Assembly (NCBI GenBank): GCA_910585045.1
Contig: CAJUCD010000003.1
Location: forward strand, 42,779-106,778
Origin: an uncultured Bacilli bacterium
GTDB lineage: Bacteria > Bacillota_I > Bacilli_A > RF39 > UBA660
Length of the DNA stretch: 64,000 nucleotides
Direction of reading: 5' to 3'
Below the pieces are notes generated by a model that saw only the letters and a program-made list of their open reading frames with translations, did no database searches and was not told the origin of the DNA. Shown here piece by piece: positions 8,500 through 61,576 of this stretch; within the stretch, counting starts at the first letter, position 1, and each line of letters begins with the position of its first letter. Both the position numbers and the translations under genes were made by a program.

Positions 8500-9255
8500 G
8501 TGAAAGCACAAAGTAGTTTGTCAGCTAATAAATTTTTGAAAGTGTTTGGAAAAATTGTTTCTTGGGCCCTTTTCATTGTACTTGTAGTAGCGGCTGTCTT
8601 TTTATTATATTATTATATTGCTACAAAAATATATACCGCTAAAGGTCCAGGTTATGAGCCTAAATTTTCTATTTATACAATAATAAGTGGATCTATGGAG
8701 CCTAATATAAAGGTTTATGATACTGTAATTAATGAACGTATTGACAATCCTAATGATATTGTTGTAGGTGATGTTATAACTTTTATATCTACAAGTTTAT
8801 TGTCGCCTGGGACGACTATAACGCACCGTGTTATTGCTCTTACAACAGATGAAAATGGTAATATTTGTTATCAAACTAAAGGAGATAATAATGCAGTGGC
8901 AGATCAAGCTTGCGCTAAATTTCATAACGTTTTAGGTAAGGTTATTCTTAAAATACCACAATTAGGTAGGGTTCAATTCTTTTTGGCCTCAAAAGCTGGA
9001 TGGTTATTATGTATTTTAATTCCTGCTTTAATTATTATTGGTAGAGATATTATGCGAATTACTAAATTGACTGCAATTAAGAAAACTACTCAAAAAATTA
9101 ATGATAAAGAGAAAAAAGATCCTAAAAAGATAGTTTTTGAACAGGGTAGAAAAGAAAATTTAAAAAGAAAATTGTTAAATGATGTTAATGAGTCTAAATA
9201 TTATTATGAAGATCCAAAAGTGATTGAAATTGATAGACAAAAGAAAAGGAAATAG
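8500..9255 (+). CDS. sipW: signal peptidase I, SipW/archaeal-eukaryal S26 type, with a Lys-rich C-terminal tail
   Basis: N-terminal TM segment, the catalytic box IISGSMEPNIKVYDTVI (SGSMEP), and a second conserved block GDNNAVADQ. GTG start after AGGAGG. Confidence 0.75.
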   Translation: MKAQSSLSANKFLKVFGKIVSWALFIVLVVAAVFLLYYYIATKIYTAKGPGYEPKFSIYTIISGSMEPNIKVYDTVINERIDNPNDIVVGDVITFISTSLLSPGTTITHRVIALTTDENGNICYQTKGDNNAVADQACAKFHNVLGKVILKIPQLGRVQFFLASKAGWLLCILIPALIIIGRDIMRITKLTAIKKTTQKINDKEKKDPKKIVFEQGRKENLKRKLLNDVNESKYYYEDPKVIEIDRQKKRK

Positions 9256-48868: not shown

Positions 48869-48942
48869 TGGAGGGGCCTACCGGATTTGAACCGGTGCTC
48901 AGGGAGTTGCAGTCCCTTGCCTTACCGCTTGGCTAAAGCCCC
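48869..48942 (-). tRNA. tRNA-Cys (anticodon GCA)
   Basis: Reverse complement GGGGCTTTAGCCAAGCGGTAAGGCAAGGGACTGCAACTCCCTGAGCACCGGTTCAAATCCGGTAGGCCCCTCCA: anticodon loop CTGCAAC, T-arm GGTTCAAATCC, 3' CCA. Confidence 0.85.
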
Positions 48943-49062
48943 ATTAATATATATTATGCAATCTTTCTTTGCAATATTATTGTATTATAATTCTTTAGAT
49001 TTGTCAATTAAGATATATTGATTTTTCAAGTTAGGTATTATATACTAATGTTAGTGATTGTT

Positions 49063-50454
49063 ATGAGAAGTAAATTGAGTGCAACTATAGGTGGAAAATG
49101 GCAAATTTTAGATTATAATTTAGATGGTGAATTAACATGTATTCCAGATACAGGCGAAATCACTTTAGTGATTCATTATGTTGATTATTTTCCCTTTAAA
49201 AAGTTTCAAAAATTTAATAAAGTTTCAGATATAAAAGAAATTTGGGGTGTTACCTCTTTTAGGCAAAAATGTGTACTTTTAGAATGTCAATTTATTAGTG
49301 ATTATTCTTTTAATGCCGATCATGAATTAACAATTAAAGCTAAATATTTAATATGGGATATGACTAAAGTAAAAGATGAAGAAATTAAATTTAATAAAAT
49401 GTCTTTTAGATTAACTAATAGTTTATTATGGTCGGGAATGCAATGTTATAATTCTTTTAAAAAAGATGATAAATATTTAATATCTTGTGATTTTGGTGAG
49501 AAAATAATTAAAAGTGATTTAAAAACAGAAATAAAGTTTTGTGCAACTATAAATAGCATTGATGGATTTATGCGAGCAGAAAAAATAGAGTTATATCAAT
49601 ATTTGGAAGTAATAATAAAGAAGAGTGAATTAACTCATTATACTGAGTTTTTAGAAGATATAAAGAAAGTGATAAATTTGATTAAATTAGCTACCAATGA
49701 AGAAGTTAATATTAATGAAATTTGTGGTTATAGAAATGATAAAACTTATGTGTGTGGAGATAAAAAGTATTATTATGAATTTTGTATGGTAACTAATGAG
49801 ATGCGAAATAATATTTTAAGTTATTGTGATGATACAAATTATTTATATAGTCTTCCTAATATGATAAGTGAAGGTAAAATAGAGGTATGGTTCAAAACAT
49901 ATAATGATTATAAAAATGTATATGAATTATATTTATTGTCTTATAAAGATGAAGTTTCCTCAGAGATTAGTTTTATTTATTTAGTTCAGGCTTTAGAACT
50001 TTTGCATCGAATTAAATTTAAAAATAAGAATAAGTTTATGAAATATTTAAAAAATAAATTGCAAGATAAGAAAGAGTTATGGGATAATATTAGAGAAAAT
50101 AGTGATCAAGAAGATTCTAGATATATAATTCTACGTAGTAGATTGATTGATATGATAGATTGTGATTTTGAAATTAAAAATGATTTTAAAGAAGAAACAA
50201 TTATAAAATTAGCAGATATAATTACTAATAGTAGAAATTATTATACACATTTTAGTGAATCTAAAAAAGAGAAATGTGTTAGAAAGAAAAGTCTTTCATA
50301 TGTTATGGAAATTTTAAGATATTTTATTAAATGTTATGCTCTAAAAGAATTAGGATTTGATATTAACTATATTAATGAGAAAACAGAATCAAGTTTGGAA
50401 TACATTAGATATTATAATATGATAGAAAAAATATTAAGTGAAAATGGAGATTAA
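49063..50454 (+). CDS. hypothetical protein (463 aa) with a C-terminal HEPN-like R-N-x-x-x-H motif
   Basis: ADIITNSRNYYTHFSE (R at 50233) fits the HEPN Rx4-6H signature, with a following aromatic. The N-terminal 380 aa are unrecognised. Stop is 2 nt before the start of the next gene. Confidence 0.5.
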   Translation: MRSKLSATIGGKWQILDYNLDGELTCIPDTGEITLVIHYVDYFPFKKFQKFNKVSDIKEIWGVTSFRQKCVLLECQFISDYSFNADHELTIKAKYLIWDMTKVKDEEIKFNKMSFRLTNSLLWSGMQCYNSFKKDDKYLISCDFGEKIIKSDLKTEIKFCATINSIDGFMRAEKIELYQYLEVIIKKSELTHYTEFLEDIKKVINLIKLATNEEVNINEICGYRNDKTYVCGDKKYYYEFCMVTNEMRNNILSYCDDTNYLYSLPNMISEGKIEVWFKTYNDYKNVYELYLLSYKDEVSSEISFIYLVQALELLHRIKFKNKNKFMKYLKNKLQDKKELWDNIRENSDQEDSRYIILRSRLIDMIDCDFEIKNDFKEETIIKLADIITNSRNYYTHFSESKKEKCVRKKSLSYVMEILRYFIKCYALKELGFDINYINEKTESSLEYIRYYNMIEKILSENGD

Positions 50455-50456
50455 TA

Positions 50457-51155
50457 ATGATAGAAGAAGTTAAAAGGTATACTTTAGAGTTTTTAGAAGA
50501 AGAAAAGTCTGGTCATGGTATGGATCATGCTTTAAGAGTTTTTGATTTAGCTTCAAAATTTGCATTAGTTGAAGGAGCAGATATACAAGTTGTAGGAATT
50601 GCAGCACTAATTCATGATGTTGATGATTATAAAATTGTGGGAGATGCTAAATCTTTAGATTTGCTGAATGCCAAAAAAATAATGGATAAAGCAGAAGTTC
50701 CTATGCAAATACAAGAAATGGTTTTAAATATTATTAAAAATATGGGTTATAAAAATTATTTAAAAGGTATTAGACCTAAAACGCTAGAAGGAATGATAGT
50801 TTCAGATGCGGATATGTGTGAAGCAATAGGTGCGCATGGAATAATACGATCAGTTGTGTATGCTGTTAGTGATAAAGGTTCAGGGGTTATTTTTGATAAA
50901 AATGTTTGGCCTAATGTTAATATGACTTTTGATGATTATAATAAAAATGGAACTACTTATGATACTGATAATGCTATTAATTATTGTTTTGAAAAAATGT
51001 TAAAGTTAAAAGATTTAATGTTATGTAAGAGTGGTAAATTTGAAGCAGAGAAGAGACATCAGTTTATTATTGATTTTTTAAAACAGTTTTTTATGGAAGA
51101 ACAAGAATTAGATTGGCTCAATTATTTAGATAATTATTTGGAAGAATTAAATTAG
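50457..51155 (+). CDS. HD-domain metal-dependent phosphohydrolase
   Basis: H...HD signature: GHGMDHALRV ... IAALIHDVDDYK ... D. Confidence 0.75.
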   Translation: MIEEVKRYTLEFLEEEKSGHGMDHALRVFDLASKFALVEGADIQVVGIAALIHDVDDYKIVGDAKSLDLLNAKKIMDKAEVPMQIQEMVLNIIKNMGYKNYLKGIRPKTLEGMIVSDADMCEAIGAHGIIRSVVYAVSDKGSGVIFDKNVWPNVNMTFDDYNKNGTTYDTDNAINYCFEKMLKLKDLMLCKSGKFEAEKRHQFIIDFLKQFFMEEQELDWLNYLDNYLEELN

Positions 51156-55977: not shown

Positions 55978-56063
55978 GCTTGTGTGGCGGAATGGTAGAC
56001 GCACCAGACTCAAAATCTGGCGAGGTCAAACTCGTGTGGGTTCAAGTCCCACCACAAGCACCA
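55978..56063 (+). tRNA. tRNA-Leu (anticodon CAA), class II with a long variable arm
   Basis: GCTTGTGTGGCGGAATGGTAGACGCACCAGACTCAAAATCTGGCGAGGTCAAACTCGTGTGGGTTCAAGTCCCACCACAAGCACCA. Anticodon loop CTCAAAA, T-loop GGTTCAAGTCC, 3' CCA. Confidence 0.9.
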
Positions 56064-56147
56064 GATTGATATGAAATGGCTTCGAAAAGTTAGAAAAAGA
56101 ATGTATAATAAAAATATATTCTTAAACTTGGAAGGAGTCATTTTTTA

Positions 56148-57235
56148 ATGAAAAAAACGATAGAAGAAAAACTTGAAATGTGTAAAGAACATGTAGTAGA
56201 GGGAAAGTCATTATCACACATATGTGAATTACACAATACAAGAAACATAGATGATTTAAAATATCTAGTTAATTTATATAAAAGATATGGAGAAGAACCA
56301 TTTTTAAACAGAGAAAGAATGATATATAGAAGAGCAACAAAACTATTAACTATAAGCAGAATAAAAAATGGAGACAAGTAAGTTTGGATATCGGATTAAT
56401 AAATTATAAAACGGCATTAGATTGGGTAAAAAAGTATGATACAGAAGGAGAACAATCAATACAAGATACTTATCCTAGAAAAAACTATTTAAATGAAGAT
56501 GAACGATATAAAAAGATGATAGATAAGAAATTAATGGAAGAAAATGAAAGATTAAAAGCAGAGATTGATTTCTTAAAAAAATCGCAGTCCTTAGCAAAAA
56601 AACTAGAATAACTAACAACAAAAGAAAAAGTAAAAGTTGTCAATGAGCTAAGGATAAAGTATGAATTAAAAGTTCTTCTAGAAATGGCAGATATTCCATT
56701 GTCAGTATATTATTATCAGTTAAATGCAATAAAAAATAAAGTCAACTATAGAAGATATAATTCTTATAAAGGTGATTTAGGAGGAGTAAAGGAAAATGTT
56801 TTAAATCAAGATTTCAAGGCAACAAAACCTTATGAAAAAGCAGGAACAGATGCAAAATTAGAAAAAGTATTAAACATGATAAAGAAATTAAAAGAAAATC
56901 ATCAGGAAAATATAAAAGGTATGATAATACAATCAGATCAAGGTGTACAATACCAAAACTCTAGATATTCAGAATTGTTAAATGAATATGAAATAATCCA
57001 ATCAATGAACAGAAAAGGAAATTGTTTAGATAACTCTCCGACAGAAAATTTTTTTGGAAGACTAAAAGAAGAAATATGGTATAATAAAGAATATAAATAT
57101 GAAAACTCTGTGGAATTAATAAAAGAAATTCATAATTATATAAAATATTATAATGAAATACGGATAGTGACTAAATTAAAAACAACTCCAATTGATTTTA
57201 GGAAAAAATGCTTAAGTGAACTGGGAGTTGCATAA
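56148..57235 (+). mobile_element. decayed IS3-family (IS150-like) insertion sequence: OrfA split into two pieces and a truncated OrfB (rve) C-terminal part; non-functional
   Basis: OrfA-like ...YLVNLYKRYGEEPF plus a leucine-zipper piece ...LMEENERLKAEIDFLKK. OrfB piece ...IIQSDQGVQYQNSRYSELL...QSMNRKGNCLDNSPTENFFGRLKEE matches the integrase-core C-terminus. No intact DDE region. Confidence 0.7.
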
Positions 57236-57362
57236 ATTTTTTTCTAACTTTTTGAAGTCGTTTCAAAAATGGATTTTATTTAAAAATGAAACGGAAATTA
57301 TTCAAAAGTTATTTCACCTATGATATAATTAATTCAGATACAATGAAGGGGGAATTTATCAT

Positions 57363-58255
57363 ATGAAAAATAATTTAATCAAAACAGAAATAGATGTTAT
57401 TAATAATAAAATAAGTGTAATGAGAATAGACGGCATAGATTATATATCTCTTACAGATTTAGCAAAATATACAAATCCTGAAGATCCATCTGGAGTAATT
57501 AGAAATTGGATGTCTAATAAAAATTCTTTTGAATATTATAGTCTTTGGGAAGAGATTAATAATAGAGATTTTAATTCCGTGGAATCTCACAGAATTAAAA
57601 TTAATGAAGTTGGGTATAATCGATTTACTATGACACCAAATCGTTGGAAAAGAGATTTTAATGCAATCGGTATAATACCAAGCAGTGGTAATATAGTCAA
57701 GGAACTTTTGCCCACCCAGATATAGCATTCGAATTCGCTAGTTGGTTAAGCCCAGAGTTCAAATTGTATTTAATAAAAGAATTCGAAAGATTAAAGAAAA
57801 ATGAGGCTTATCAGGAAAAAATAGAATGGCGTGCTAATAGGTTATTATCTAAAGCAAATTATATAGTTCATACTGATGCTGTTAAAAATTATATTGTTCC
57901 AACATTAACAGAACAGCAAAAGAAGTTTATATATGCAGAAGAAGCTGATGTGTTAAATGTAGCTTTATTTGGAATGACAGCTAAAGAGTGGAGGAAAAAG
58001 AATCCAAAACTTGCTGAAGATGGTAATATAAGAGATTATACAGATTTATTACATTTAATAATATTAAACAATTTAGAGAATTCTAATGCTGAATTTATAA
58101 AATTGGGGATTGTTCAAAGAGAGAGGCTAATAAAATTAAATGAATCTGCTCGAAATCAAATGGAAATCTTAAAAAACAATAACGGAATAAAAGAATTAGA
58201 AATGTTACAAAATCAAATAAATAATAGTGGGTATTTAATCGATAATAAAAATTGA
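57363..58255 (+). pseudogene. KilA-N domain protein (phage antirepressor-type) disrupted by a frameshift near 57700
   Basis: Frame 1 gives the KilA-N N-terminal part (...ISVMRIDGIDYISLTDLAKY...NWMSNKNSFEYYSLWEEINNRDFNS...) and stops at 57725. The conserved continuation GTFAHPDIAFEFASWLSPEFKLYLIKEFERLK is in a different frame from about 57703 and runs into the 57764..58255 ORF. Confidence 0.6.
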
Positions 58256-58689
58256 TTTTACTATAATAAATTGAAATAAAAGTTACTAGTGGAAATGAAA
58301 CGGAAATTATTCGGAAGTTGAAATTTTGATATAGAATTTTGAAAATAAAGAATTAAAGGAAAATCAATAATCAATTATAAACACAAATATTATAACACCT
58401 TATAAAACCTAAAGACTTACGTTAATAATTTAAAAATTAGCAAGAAATTATCCAAACTTAAATCGGAAGTTATTCAAAAATTTCTAAAATGAGAAAATAT
58501 GATATGGCTATTTAGAGTGACTTTTGATATAATGAAAATGCCAATGGGGAGAGTTCAAATAAGAGCCTTATAACACACCAGATTGATAGTAAACTCGAAC
58601 TTTTATGTTTCGAGTTTTAATATGCTTTAAATTATTGTATAATGTATTTGTAGTAATCAAACTAATTTATTTATTGGGAAGTTTAATTA

Positions 58690-58796
58690 ACAAAAAAATA
58701 TTTAAATTAGAAATTAATGAAAATGATAACAAAATAAAAGTAATAAGAATAGGATCTAAGGAATATATATCTGTAACTGATTTAGTACAGTTTTAA
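58690..58796 (+). pseudogene. second short KilA-N N-terminal fragment (KIFKLEINENDNKIKVIRIGSKEYISVTDL)
   Basis: Resembles LIKTEIDVINNKISVMRIDGIDYISLTDL of the upstream KilA-N gene; truncated after about 35 aa. Confidence 0.3.
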
Positions 58797-59352
58797 AACA
58801 TTTACTAATTTTATTTAGAAAACACTAATGTTGAACTTATTAACGATTGAAATACAAAGGTAAAAAATTACGCCAAAAAAACTATATTTTTTTAATATAG
58901 CTTTATAATTAACGTAATCATTTTTTAAAATGGTTAACTATTTTAGAGATTAGTTAAAGTAAATAAAACATGGAATATTATATTTATTCTTTCTCTATAT
59001 ATACTTAAGTTTGTTACTTCTTCAATAAAGTCTTTATATTAATCGTTTTTAATATTCCTATGGTTAGACATATTACGATTATTATTACTATTATTAGTAT
59101 TTTCTTCTTTTGCATCATTACTATTTTCCCTTTATTTTATACTCGATAATAAATTTAATTCAATTTTATCATAATATTAGAGTATTGATAATTTTTTTTA
59201 TTAAAAATAAAAAATTGAAAAAATATTATTTATAAAATAAGATTAAATAAAAGAATATTTTATTGTTATAAATGCTGAATGTTAATAATCATTGCTTGTA
59301 GCAACGAGCTACTTTGCATATAATAGGCAGTAAAGAAAGGAGTTGTTCTAAA

Positions 59353-59862
59353 ATGCTTAAAGAAAACATTAAAACAATAAGGAAATCAAGAGGTCTTTCT
59401 CAAGAGGAGCTTGCTATTAAAGTAAATGTAGTAAGACAAACTATTTCTAAGTGGGAGCAAGGATTATCTGTTCCTGATTCAGAAATGTTAATTAGAATAT
59501 CAGAAGTTCTTGAAATACCAGTAAGTACTTTGCTGGGAGAGAATATTTCTGAATTTAAAAAAGATGATTTAAAAGTAATTTCTGATAAATTAGAGATTAT
59601 AAATTTACAACTTTTACAAAGAAAACTTGCAAGAAGAAAAATAATTCATTTGACATTAATTTTTATATGTATAAGTGTAATAGTGATTGGCTGTTGTTTA
59701 TTTTTGTTACATAGTTCTTATTTAAATTGGAATTATGATGATCCTGAAAAGAGTGTTTTGGGAGTGTTTTTTCATTCGTTTGAATGGCTATTTGTAAGAA
59801 TAGCACCTATAATTGTTATCATATCATTAGTGGGAATAATGTTGACTCGAAATAAAGATTAG
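59353..59862 (+). CDS. membrane-anchored XRE-family HTH regulator (N-terminal HTH_3 plus two C-terminal TM helices)
   Basis: IRKSRGLSQEELAIKVNVVRQTISKWEQG, then LTLIFICISVIVIGCCLFLL and APIIVIISLVGIML. RBS AAAGGAG; ATG at 59353. Confidence 0.6.
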   Translation: MLKENIKTIRKSRGLSQEELAIKVNVVRQTISKWEQGLSVPDSEMLIRISEVLEIPVSTLLGENISEFKKDDLKVISDKLEIINLQLLQRKLARRKIIHLTLIFICISVIVIGCCLFLLHSSYLNWNYDDPEKSVLGVFFHSFEWLFVRIAPIIVIISLVGIMLTRNKD

Positions 59863-59934
59863 TTTTAAAAATGTTATTTATGTTTTATAATTTGTGCTAT
59901 AATATAAAGGAATTTTTTAGGAGATTATTTTAAT

Positions 59935-61137
59935 ATGATTAAGAATTTATCATTAAATGATTGTACTCAAGAAAATATAATAGAGCACCTTAAAAATACT
60001 GAAAAATTATTGAAAACAGTTGCAACTAAGTTATCAAAAGAGGAAAAAGATGCCAAAATATATGTAATGCCTGATTTAGGAATTGCTCAAAATGCAACAA
60101 GAATGTTAGGAGGATTTTATACAGGAGCTTGTTATACGTGGGATACAGATGTTCCGTTTATTCCAGTTGATGCTACAGTAAATGTTTGTGGAACGGCAAT
60201 TTATAAATTAAATAAAAGTATTAGTAATGAAGAATTTATTAATAGACTTAATAATATATTAAATGATAGAAAATCTTATTTAGACTTTGCTAATAAGCAT
60301 TTACCATTAGAAGTTTTAAAAACTATTGATATTAATGATGCTTCAAAATATTATTGGAATTATACTAATGGTAATCATTTTATTATTTTTGCTGAGTCTG
60401 ATGGAGAATATGGACTGGAAAAAGGTCAGTATATGATTGTTCATGCTTCTGCGATAGAATTTAAAAAAGATAATTTGGAATTTGGATTATATCCTGTAAA
60501 AGGAAATTGGTATTATGATGATATAAAAACAGAATATGATGAAGATTCTAAAAGATATTTACGATATATAACAGGTGAAAAAGCTAAAAGATTTTATGAT
60601 ATAGCTACCTATTTAAAAGATTTTAATAAAATTAGAAATAGTTATTTTTGTAAGGCTGTTTTAGGTGATTTATTACAAAAAGAAGTTATTAATATAAGCC
60701 ATTATGGAATGCCAACAAATAATTCTATATGTATTGGCTCTCAGTGGGAACAACTTGATTATGCATTATTGACAGCACCTGGAAATGCTATTTATTTGGT
60801 ACATCCTAAATTAAATTTAAACAATACTTTTGCACTAGATAATATAAATATTACTTTGACTCCTCATGGTTGTGGTGTAAAAATGAATAATAGTGCAGAT
60901 AAAATAGAATATCTCGATAAAAACACATTAAAAGTTGGTAATAATATTTTTAGTTTAGGTAATAGTGTAAATATTGGCATAGATGTTTCAGTAAGAACAA
61001 ATGGTATGAATGAAGAAGAATTAGATACATACATATTAAATATTCTAAAGCAATGTCCTGGAACTGTTTATGGTAAATTAAAGCAACGCTATGCTAAAAC
61101 AAAATCTGGAGATTTTGAATTTATTAAAGAAAATTAA
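59935..61137 (+). CDS. hypothetical protein (400 aa), function unknown
   Basis: ORF with RBS TAGGAG; no motif recognised. Confidence 0.45.
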   Translation: MIKNLSLNDCTQENIIEHLKNTEKLLKTVATKLSKEEKDAKIYVMPDLGIAQNATRMLGGFYTGACYTWDTDVPFIPVDATVNVCGTAIYKLNKSISNEEFINRLNNILNDRKSYLDFANKHLPLEVLKTIDINDASKYYWNYTNGNHFIIFAESDGEYGLEKGQYMIVHASAIEFKKDNLEFGLYPVKGNWYYDDIKTEYDEDSKRYLRYITGEKAKRFYDIATYLKDFNKIRNSYFCKAVLGDLLQKEVINISHYGMPTNNSICIGSQWEQLDYALLTAPGNAIYLVHPKLNLNNTFALDNINITLTPHGCGVKMNNSADKIEYLDKNTLKVGNNIFSLGNSVNIGIDVSVRTNGMNEEELDTYILNILKQCPGTVYGKLKQRYAKTKSGDFEFIKEN

Positions 61138-61231
61138 ATTGTTAGAAACTCGAATTTTATGTTTCGAGTTTTAATATGGATTAATTTATGTTATAATTTT
61201 TTTGATTATATAGTATTGGATGTGATTATTA

Positions 61232-61576
61232 ATGTATTTTAAAATTGCACAATCTTTTTCTGAGACTCCTGGTGGTCGTTATAAAAAAGAAGGACCTTAT
61301 TCAGCTGAAGAATTTAGAGATAATTTTTTAGTACCTTTATATTTAAAGTGCTTAGCGCTATCAGAAAAATTAATGTTAGATTTTGATGGTGGTTATGGTT
61401 ATGCTCCTGGTTTTTTAGAGGAAACTTTTGGGGGAATGATTAGACTTGGTTATTCTGCAACAGAAATGGCTACAGTTATAGAGTTTGTTTCAAATGAAGA
61501 ACCTAATTTAATATCTAATATTGCAAGTTATATTAGTGATGCTGAATGGGTTTTAAATGATAGGAATTTAAATTAA
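61232..61576 (+). CDS. small STAS-like (DUF4325-type) protein
   Basis: ...PGGRYKKEGPYSAEEFRDNFL...KLMLDFDGGYGYAPGFLEETFGGMI resembles the DUF4325 STAS-like pattern (LDFEGV...sSFldE). By recollection only. Confidence 0.4.
   Translation: MYFKIAQSFSETPGGRYKKEGPYSAEEFRDNFLVPLYLKCLALSEKLMLDFDGGYGYAPGFLEETFGGMIRLGYSATEMATVIEFVSNEEPNLISNIASYISDAEWVLNDRNLN

Follow-up and report, generated by a model that had tools for sequence, protein, structure and literature searches.

We analysed a 64-kb window (contig CAJUCD010000003.1) from an uncultured Bacilli bacterium, with a G+C content of ~25%, and focus here on a candidate integrative element located immediately downstream of a tRNA-Leu(CAA) gene. The flanking genes are spoVA, scpA, scpB, and a pentapeptide-repeat gene; together with the related loci, they place the window among low-GC Bacilli of the gut. 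Composition and repeat counts refer to the whole 64-kb window, and coordinates are window coordinates unless they are assigned to another locus (L numbers). The locus contains the following features:

55978–56063, plus strand: tRNA-Leu(CAA), intact, the candidate integration target at its CCA end (ARAGORN; Rfam RF00005, 63 bits)
56059–56071, plus strand: 13-mer copy 1 (putative attL), the final 5 nt of the tRNA (CACCA) and then GATTGATA
56072–57265, plus strand: IS3-family insertion sequence (IS), internally deleted, with left inverted repeat (IRL) 56072–56098 and right inverted repeat (IRR) 57239–57265
56148–56381, 56384–56611, and 56684–57235, plus strand: transposase fragments with rve, rve_2, and HTH_28 matches
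57276–57310, plus strand: rep1, a promoter-associated repeat
57363–58255, plus strand: KilA-N gene 1, a pseudogene, ancestrally 297 aa, with a 1-bp deletion at 57689
58285–58319, plus strand: rep2, an orphan copy of the repeat
58448–58482, plus strand: rep3, a weaker third copy of the repeat
58546–58580, plus strand: putative right terminus of the element, GGGGAGAGTTCAAATAAGAGCCTTATAACACACCA, which mimics a tRNA T-arm and acceptor in decayed form and ends in CCA
58576–58588, plus strand: 13-mer copy 2 (putative attR), the pseudo-CCA end of the element and then the opening 8 nt of the displaced older trailer
58581–58650, plus strand: displaced tRNA trailer module, consisting of GATTGATAG, a terminator hairpin, and promoter-like TTGTATAAT, which is found directly behind tRNA-Leu in related species
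58605–58799, plus strand: KilA-N stub 2 (open reading frame [ORF] 58605–58796; homology 58686–58799)

The repeat, the insertion sequence, and the KilA-N genes

The tRNA-Leu(CAA) sequence is the same in L001–L006. The 13-mer CACCAGATTGATA occurs exactly at 56059–56071 and 58576–58588 and nowhere else in the window, and the number of copies is still 2 when one mismatch is permitted; 0.07 would be expected by chance, and none of 100 shuffles contained at least 2 matches. The initial annotation, which had proposed an eroded tRNA-targeting element bounded by this repeat, was thus correct as to its positions. Two of the contents it had named also lie between the copies: the IS3-like transposase fragments (3 ORFs with rve, rve_2, and HTH_28 matches) and the frameshifted KilA-N gene 1 (ORFs 57363–57725 and 57764–58255, PF04383). 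By contrast, the second KilA-N stub, which had been placed between the 13-mers, is located outside them, downstream of copy 2, in an older neighbouring cassette (described below). A 28-bp repeat that had been described as bracketing the KilA-N gene is present, but it has 3 copies (rep1, rep2, and rep3) and is a promoter-associated motif, not a boundary of the element. The repeat AAATGAAACGGAAATTATTC is exact at 57284–57303 and 58293–58312, and a promoter-like TTCAAA-17-TATAAT with a TG extension is located at 57301–57329 (rep1).

The IS has 27-nt terminal inverted repeats with TG...CA ends, of which 24 of 27 positions are complementary (IRL sequence TGAAATGGCTTCGAAAAGTT) and none is expected by chance. 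It starts on the base right after 13-mer copy 1, 8 nt past the CCA. Because the IS has its own 27-nt inverted repeats, it is a discrete secondary insertion; its fragments lie between the 13-mers as had been reported, but they represent an independent later insertion with its own ends and not a part of the eroded element. The length of the IS is 1,475 bp in L001, 1,301 bp in L002 and L004, and 1,194 bp in the window, L003, and L005, and these differences correspond to deletions of 1, 10, 96, and 174 bp. In the L001 copy (L001 5856–7330), a single uninterrupted ORF encodes a 455-aa transposase without the need for a frameshift. This full-length transposase contains rve, rve_2, HTH_21, and HTH_28 domains and matches NF033516 with 279 bits (cut-off 160), whereas in the window a stop codon and deletions have split the transposase ORF. 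IS3-family elements have two overlapping ORFs, which are joined by programmed −1 frameshifting, and generate 3–5-bp target duplications. The IS resembles this family in its HTH and rve DDE transposase, the NF033516 match, and the 27-nt TG...CA inverted repeats, and differs from it in the single 455-aa ORF (L001), which is unusual for the family and has no orfA/orfB frameshift, and in the lack of a visible target duplication. No duplication was found at its flanks (...GATA on the left and AAAA... on the right; ATA compared with AAA), and, to the right of the IS, the sequence does not continue a trailer hairpin. An IS-associated deletion or a point change could account for the missing duplication. 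In a BLAST search against plasmids, the IS matched IS3-family elements such as ISEnfa3 only over short stretches at 70% identity; therefore, the IS could not be assigned to a named IS. The rep motif was considered as a solo left end of the IS and rejected, since 9–46% of random 49-mers score as well, which is background level.

The left end of the same IS is located 8 nt after the CCA of a pseudo-tRNA in L013 (spacer GAGGGAAA; reverse strand, ~1772–1790 in reverse-complement coordinates) and 9 nt after tRNA-Leu in L053 (spacer TTGAGCAAT; ~8715–8735). In L013, L053, and the window, the IS lies just upstream of the expected start of the terminator stem, and the spacers differ. These three decayed copies suggest that the IS has a target preference near the CCA and the hairpin. 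The IS3 members IS1397 and ISKpn1 target palindromes, which are palindromic units in the case of IS1397, and the position upstream of a hairpin, repeated in three species, suggests that the preference of the IS may be comparable to that of IS1397.

In a population comparison of five independent assemblies of the same species (L001–L005), the insert was found at the same place in every same-species assembly read, in differing states of decay. KilA-N gene 1 carries three independent lesions, namely, stop codons at 57582 (GAA>TAA) and 57744 (TGG>TAG) and the 1-bp deletion at 57689, which account for 3 of the 8 variable sites in the gene among strains that are otherwise nearly identical (L001–L005 and L182–L186). 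Intact alleles (P0001 and P0002) exist and are rare: the exact 163-aa C-terminal fragment ORF of the broken alleles was found in 294 assembly blocks, compared with ~10 for the intact P0002. The loss of KilA-N gene 1 could be due to relaxed selection or to selection for loss. As read from these alleles, the IS and KilA-N gene 1 are shown to be decaying independently across strains.

The KilA-N protein family is very large (>8000 database matches), and the whole protein matches a phage transcriptional regulator family in PHROGs (phrog_2657, E = 5e-49). The AlphaFold model of the 297-aa protein has a mean predicted local distance difference test (pLDDT) score of 52, with most of the C-terminal half below 50, and a PDB sequence search with the protein returned only a spurious match to alpha-catenin (E = 0.15). 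The possibility that the KilA-N protein itself acts as the recombinase of small elements is disfavoured, since two elements that share the right-end motif described below (the first element of L018 and that of L076) have no KilA-N gene; the elements of L007 and L013 likewise have none.

Lone KilA-N genes also occur away from tRNA genes (L090–L093 7850–8963, L129 5630–7059, L122 2712–3833, and L120 5734–6806). They are flanked by direct repeats of 21–54 bp with a hairpin, which differ by locus and do not have the AGTTGT...CCA motif; examples include the bacA 3′ end with its terminator and a 39-bp perfect repeat. Long target-site duplication through a new mode of transposition was considered for the cassettes away from tRNA genes; at least one such “repeat”, that in L112, is a promoter-leader repeated before successive genes. 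Four pairs of KilA-N genes (L112/L116, L155/L160, L104/L105, and L137/L140) are 94–99% identical within non-homologous flanks, and the shared sequence around them extends at most ~100–200 nt upstream and 0–60 nt downstream. The KilA-N gene and its promoter region seem to move as a single-gene module.

Uninterrupted sites, intact relatives, and the right end

A synteny scan with ScpB, whose best identity among GTDB species representatives was 87%, yielded 80 related loci. In related species, the tRNA-Leu gene (...GCACCA) is followed without interruption by GATTGATAnnAAACTCG(G/A)AC-loop-TTCGAGTTTTAA(T/A)AT, which can also be read as GATTGATAnnAAACTCG-loop-CGAGTTTT. The 8-mer GAT(T/A)GA(T/A)A, including single-base variants of it, and the hairpin lie directly behind the GCACCA of tRNA-Leu in seven loci (L018, L046, L069, L064, L042, L045, and L067), and L030 has a looser variant (AATAGATAGG and hairpin). 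The sequence behind tRNA-Leu in these relatives is the sequence 3′ of 13-mer copy 2 in the window, where the hairpin (58591–58617; −9.8 kcal/mol, z = −2.6) is followed by a T-run. Alignment with related genomes that lack the insert thus provided the empty-site form behind tRNA-Leu, in other species. Because the trailer lies directly behind the tRNA in these relatives, ~2.5 kb appears to be interposed in the window species; the tRNA and the trailer are ~2.5 kb apart in the window and 2.8 kb apart in the strain with the least decay. The sequence that now trails the tRNA (56064–56110, the IS end) has no hairpin (−1.9 kcal/mol, no better than shuffles). The terminator hairpin of tRNA-Leu(CAA) is therefore lost, and transcription presumably enters the IS. 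As far as it can be read from these alignments, the ancestral order is shown to be tRNA-Leu, a GATTGATAnn spacer, the terminator hairpin, and the promoter; in some species a KilA-N gene comes next.

A relative of the window KilA-N protein (P0014; 81% protein identity, ~80% DNA identity) is encoded inside a 6.1-kb element, of which copies with 98–99% identity were found in four chromosomal contexts (L094–L097). The gene order of this element is a 90-aa ORF, a 627-aa recombinase, a 47-aa ORF, KilA-N, and a 634-aa ORF. The 627-aa protein contains Resolvase, Recombinase, and Zn_ribbon domains, and its nearest NCBIfam models are CcrB and XisF, both below cut-off. In L096 and L097 the element adjoins the 3′ end of tRNA-Leu(CAA), and the L095 copy adjoins that of tRNA-Gly(GCC); no tRNA was called at the L094 site. 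Comparison of the copies revealed that (i) at the left end, the GCACCA of the host tRNA is followed by GATTGATAGGAAACTCGGAC...TTCGAGTTT, an element-borne module with two hairpins; (ii) the right end is ...CTTACTGGCACCA (also read as ...CTCCTTACTGGCACCA), followed by a host-specific trailer; and (iii) in L095, attL has GCTCCA and attR has GCACCA, and the crossover can therefore be placed in or at the CCA. The predicted attP of the L094 type would contain ...CTTACTGGCACCAGATTGATAGGAAACTCGGAC.... The constant module at the left and the variable trailer at the right indicate that the element supplies the trailer and terminator of the tRNA and displaces those of the host.

Large serine recombinases were found in L094–L097, L103, L130, and L156, and every recombinase-bearing relative reached via the KilA-N gene encodes a recombinase of this type. 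These intact relatives are 6–10 kb long, and each has a GATTGATAGG… trailer/terminator of its own. A right-end motif, AGTTGT-N(~20)-CACCA, is present in the recombinase-bearing elements of L103 (~8 kb) and L130 (~10 kb), both at transfer-messenger RNA (tmRNA) genes, whose right ends were placed by motif search. The motif also occurs in recombinase-less mini-elements (L101, L111, L098, L105, L082, L018, and L076). Five of these (L101, L111, L098, L105, and L082) are 1.1–2.7 kb long and are located at tmRNA, tRNA-Leu, tRNA-Thr, and tRNA-Arg genes, whereas L018 (transglutaminase-like cargo) and L076 are tRNA-Leu mini-elements that carry other cargo and no KilA-N gene. Over ~75 nt, L105 and the 6.1-kb element have homologous right ends. 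The integrase type of these intact elements is the large serine recombinase and not the tyrosine type usual at tRNA genes.

Recombinase-less elements with single cargo genes were also observed at the same tRNA-Leu in L013 (606–1685, reverse complement), L018 (11453–12490), and L007 (11596–13157). The L013 cargo has a Fic-type HxFx(D/E)GNGRxxR motif, read by eye, the L018 cargo is transglutaminase-like, and the L007 cargo is a WDGH-domain protein. In addition, the trailer displaced in L096 (8822–8900; TTGACGAATCTGTTCGAACTATTCGAAC) is identical to the left-end module of the L103 tmRNA element (1864–1940). The tRNA trailers of this clade may generally be element-derived.

The right end of the window element, which includes GAGTTCAAATAAGAGCCTTATAACACACCA, belongs to a different subtype (GGGGAGAGTTCAAAT...) from AGTTGT...CACCA and is similar in position and form only to that of L007 (one of the two closest species). 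The L007 element is likewise recombinase-less and located at the same tRNA-Leu; it has the window rep motif before its cargo genes and a similar pseudo-T-arm right end, followed by a GATTGTTAAG-hairpin trailer. Downstream of the displaced trailer, stub 2 and its promoter share 86% DNA identity over 177 nt with the start of the intact KilA-N gene of L082, which directly follows the same trailer module; decayed copies occupy that position in L018 and L030. As judged from this homology, stub 2 is most readily identified as the remnant of an older L082/L018-type cassette once located directly behind the trailer module. Because the L082-like stub lies behind the displaced trailer, the locus can be read as a tandem array with the younger element beside the tRNA. 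Tandem arrays are a feature of the accretion model for integrative elements (PMC5704250). Three further features follow the stub:

59314–59862, plus strand: XRE-family HTH/membrane protein
59935–61137, plus strand: 400-aa protein with no family match
61138–61204, plus strand: third trailer/terminator/promoter module, 85.5% identical to 58582–58650, hairpin −12 kcal/mol

The XRE and 400-aa genes are possibly cargo of the older unit, which the third module may close. This module follows the 400-aa gene and precedes a DUF4325 (STAS-like) gene (61232–61576), which matches the C-terminus of the phage family phrog_5816.

Origin of the interval

The most probable reading of these data is that 56064–58580 is a decayed, recombinase-less element, similar to a cis-mobilizable element (CIME), which inserted at the CCA end of tRNA-Leu(CAA) in tandem with the older cassette; we hold it with fair confidence on comparative grounds. 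The parent element would come from a family in which intact members carry a gene for a large serine recombinase, and it would have recombined within the CCA of the tRNA or tmRNA gene. Its left end would carry its own trailer and terminator, so that the tRNA stays terminated, and its right end would mimic the tRNA 3′ end, with the host trailer pushed to the far side. The 8-mer GATTGATA is the opening of the left-end trailer module in the related serine-recombinase elements of the L094 type, and the element trailer (GATTGATA...) would have resembled the resident one, which would give the 13-bp repeat. In this model, the 13-mer marks attL and attR but is probably not a recombination core, since the crossover in the relatives maps to the CCA; the repeat would be 13 bp instead of ~3 bp long because the incoming and resident trailers were of the same type. 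We thus infer that the similarity of the element trailer to the host trailer is the source of the 13 shared base pairs, and the repeat would probably be longer than 13 bp had the IS not truncated its left copy. The IS would have inserted within the left module, just upstream of the terminator hairpin of the element, and an associated deletion would have removed the rest of the left part, either the recombinase module or only the trailer and promoter. Such a deletion would explain the missing target duplication. The predicted circular attP junction of the window element is ...TTATAACACACCAGATTGATATGAAATGG. Without a recombinase, the remnant would be immobile, or mobilisable only in trans, and eroding, and the lack of an insert-free strain among the places read argues against current mobility.

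As the initial annotation stated, no integrase survives: neither a recombinase gene nor a remnant of one was found in the window. A related serine recombinase gave no tblastn match to the window, no recombinase domain was present in the gene tables for 10 kb on each side or in Pfam scans of the ORFs, and tyrosine integrases were absent from the window gene tables, with none noted in the related elements examined. The proposal of an eroded tRNA-targeting element is itself borne out by the empty sites in relatives and by the intact integrase-bearing relatives behind tRNA-Leu. The window element has attL and attR, the former cut off by the IS 8 nt past the CCA, and carries no integrase, excisionase, or transfer genes of its own. 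In particular, it encodes no large serine recombinase, and only by inference is it a derivative of the serine-recombinase family.

Several observations weigh against this reading. The predicted empty junction CCACAAGCACCAGATTGATAGTAAAC had no exact match in the GTDB representative genomes, and look-ups of the flanking 400-aa protein and of the KilA-N fragment ORF revealed no insert-free strain of the species; with no same-species empty site found, the insertion is deduced from other, diverged species. No recombinase-bearing relative with the right-end subtype of the window (GGGGAGAGTTCAAAT...) was found, so the serine-recombinase assignment of the window element is by analogy only, and the KilA-N ORF is the only part of the window with DNA homology to the 6.1-kb element. 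The likeness of the right end to the tRNA 3′ part is weak: only CACCA matches exactly, the alignment of the 30 nt before it with the T-arm and acceptor of tRNA-Leu is weak, and only 0.5–1.7% of controls align equally well to the tRNA 3′ part. The absent target duplication is the sole indication of the IS-mediated deletion. Finally, the third module (61138–61204) has no CCA in front, which weakens the membership of 58589–61204 in the older unit.

The alternative that survives best is a classical tyrosine-integrase island whose att core was the 13-bp repeat, or a longer one cut by the IS, and whose integrase was destroyed by the IS. tRNA 3′ ends are used by 44.5% of tyrosine-integrase elements and by 4.9% of serine-integrase elements (PMC7192596), direct repeats of at least 13 bp are typical of such islands (PMC5704250), the IS occupies the tRNA-adjacent spot that is usual for their integrase genes, and the exact end subtype of the window is the one for which a recombinase-bearing relative is missing. 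However, all recombinases seen in related elements at these sites are of the serine type and no tyrosine integrase was seen among them, only 5 nt of the tRNA are included in the repeat, and in the relatives the repeat past the CCA is an element-borne trailer and not a shared core. We therefore regard a tyrosine-integrase origin as unlikely. Less probable still is an origin without site-specific integration, in which a tRNA-trailer/KilA-N unit underwent tandem duplication or homologous exchange at short promoter or terminator sequences and then diverged. The two KilA-N paralogues in tandem, the trailer module present three times in the window, and the near-identical KilA-N genes in unrelated flanks, which share ~100–200 nt upstream as if the gene were shuffled as a module, would fit such a history. 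By contrast, the identity of KilA-N gene 1 and stub 2 is only ~70% across 100 nt and their upstream regions are unrelated, a pseudo-tRNA end precedes copy 2 in the same position as in bona fide elements, and a duplication does not explain the ...CACCA junction.

We give slightly less weight again, and very little in all, to the possibility that the IS3 element itself carried in the adjacent DNA by one-ended or composite transposition, with the 13-bp repeat as a by-product. The IS does abut 13-mer copy 1 exactly, without a target duplication, and its left end recurs 8–9 nt after a CCA end in two further species; but duplications in the IS3 family are 3–5 bp long, there is a single IS copy whose right inverted repeat ends at 57265, 1.3 kb before 13-mer copy 2, and no second IS end or inverted-repeat-like sequence was found at 58560–58590. 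The KilA-N segment is missing from L013 and L053, where the IS occupies the same offset; the IS and KilA-N are thus separable. A chance match of the 13-mer, conceivable because short repeats are frequent in DNA of ~25% G+C and many 2-copy repeat families in the window are probably due to chance, is effectively refuted by the expectation and shuffles given above and by the fact that copy 2 is followed by precisely the trailer found behind the tRNA in other species.

Comparison with known elements and implications

CIMEs retain attL and attR and have lost their recombination genes (PMC5704250). The window element, on the preferred reading of a decayed serine-recombinase-type insertion, is similar to CIMEs in its junctions at a tRNA 3′ end, the missing recombinase, the tandem remnant, and the existence of recombinase-bearing relatives that might act in trans. 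It differs from them in that (i) the CIMEs described derive from streptococcal tyrosine-integrase integrative and conjugative elements and integrative and mobilizable elements with longer true att cores, whereas the window's relatives have large serine recombinases and a ~3-nt (CCA) crossover; (ii) no conjugation or mobilisation genes are evident in these relatives; and (iii) the IS destroyed most of the window attL, and cis-mobilisation may thus be lost. Compared with Islander-type tRNA/tmRNA islands, the window element shares the tRNA 3′-end target, the intact tRNA, a putative distal tRNA-like fragment, and the tandem array; however, it has no tyrosine integrase, its distal fragment consists of CACCA and a weak T-arm mimic, and it is the trailer and terminator that are displaced and not a piece of the tRNA.

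The intact relatives resemble the serine-recombinase elements represented by SCCmec Ccr, Tn4451 TndX, XisF, and phages A118 and phiC31 in the Resolvase–Recombinase–Zn_ribbon protein, in the very short crossover identity, and in near-identical copies at several sites. They differ from these in the CCA-end target and the replacement of the tRNA trailer and terminator, and the window copy differs in having no recombinase at all. Large serine recombinases usually integrate within protein-coding genes. Use of t(m)RNA genes was computed for only 4.9% of serine-integrase elements and was called previously unreported and in need of proof (PMC7192596). A decayed element with retained attL and attR and a secondary IS is thus of a known, ordinary kind, and it is the combination of recombinase and target that is uncommon. 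A literature search found no paper linking KilA-N, serine recombinase, and tRNA, and nothing relevant on KilA-N with integrative elements at tRNA genes.

A broader reading, which we put forward tentatively and consider somewhat less likely to be right in full than wrong in some part, would be that the interval is the scar of one member of an element family, essentially undescribed so far, in uncultured gut Bacilli. In this family, a serine recombinase would target the CCA of many tRNAs and tmRNAs, and the carried module would overwrite the trailer and terminator. Recombinase-less single-gene mini-elements with the same ends (cargo KilA-N, Fic, transglutaminase-like, and WDGH) would be abundant and mobilised in trans, the tRNA trailers of the clade would be largely element-derived, and the IS3-family IS would have a specific target 8–9 nt past the CCA, immediately before the hairpin.

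Elsewhere in the window, an ApeA-like HEPN protein (PF18862 and PF18739, 468 aa) and an HD-domain protein are encoded at ~49050–51155 (offset-mapped from the L003 and L005 gene tables), adjoining a tRNA-Cys gene (48869–48942, minus strand). The pair may form a further small island of the defence type beside a tRNA gene.

For the organism, the interval is non-functional mobile-element debris, fixed in the species, which comprises the pseudogenes of one IS, a single KilA-N pseudogene, and a tRNA gene deprived of its own terminator, and it should not be annotated as a functional operon. Its relatives are boundary-resolved large-serine-recombinase insertions at the CCA ends of tRNA-Leu and tRNA-Gly, as judged from copies compared across sites; the tmRNA cases are motif-predicted, and recombinase-less derivatives were also recovered. 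If confirmed experimentally, these elements would provide compact recombinases with universally conserved natural targets for the toolbox and would represent integrating elements able to rewrite tRNA 3′ flanks.

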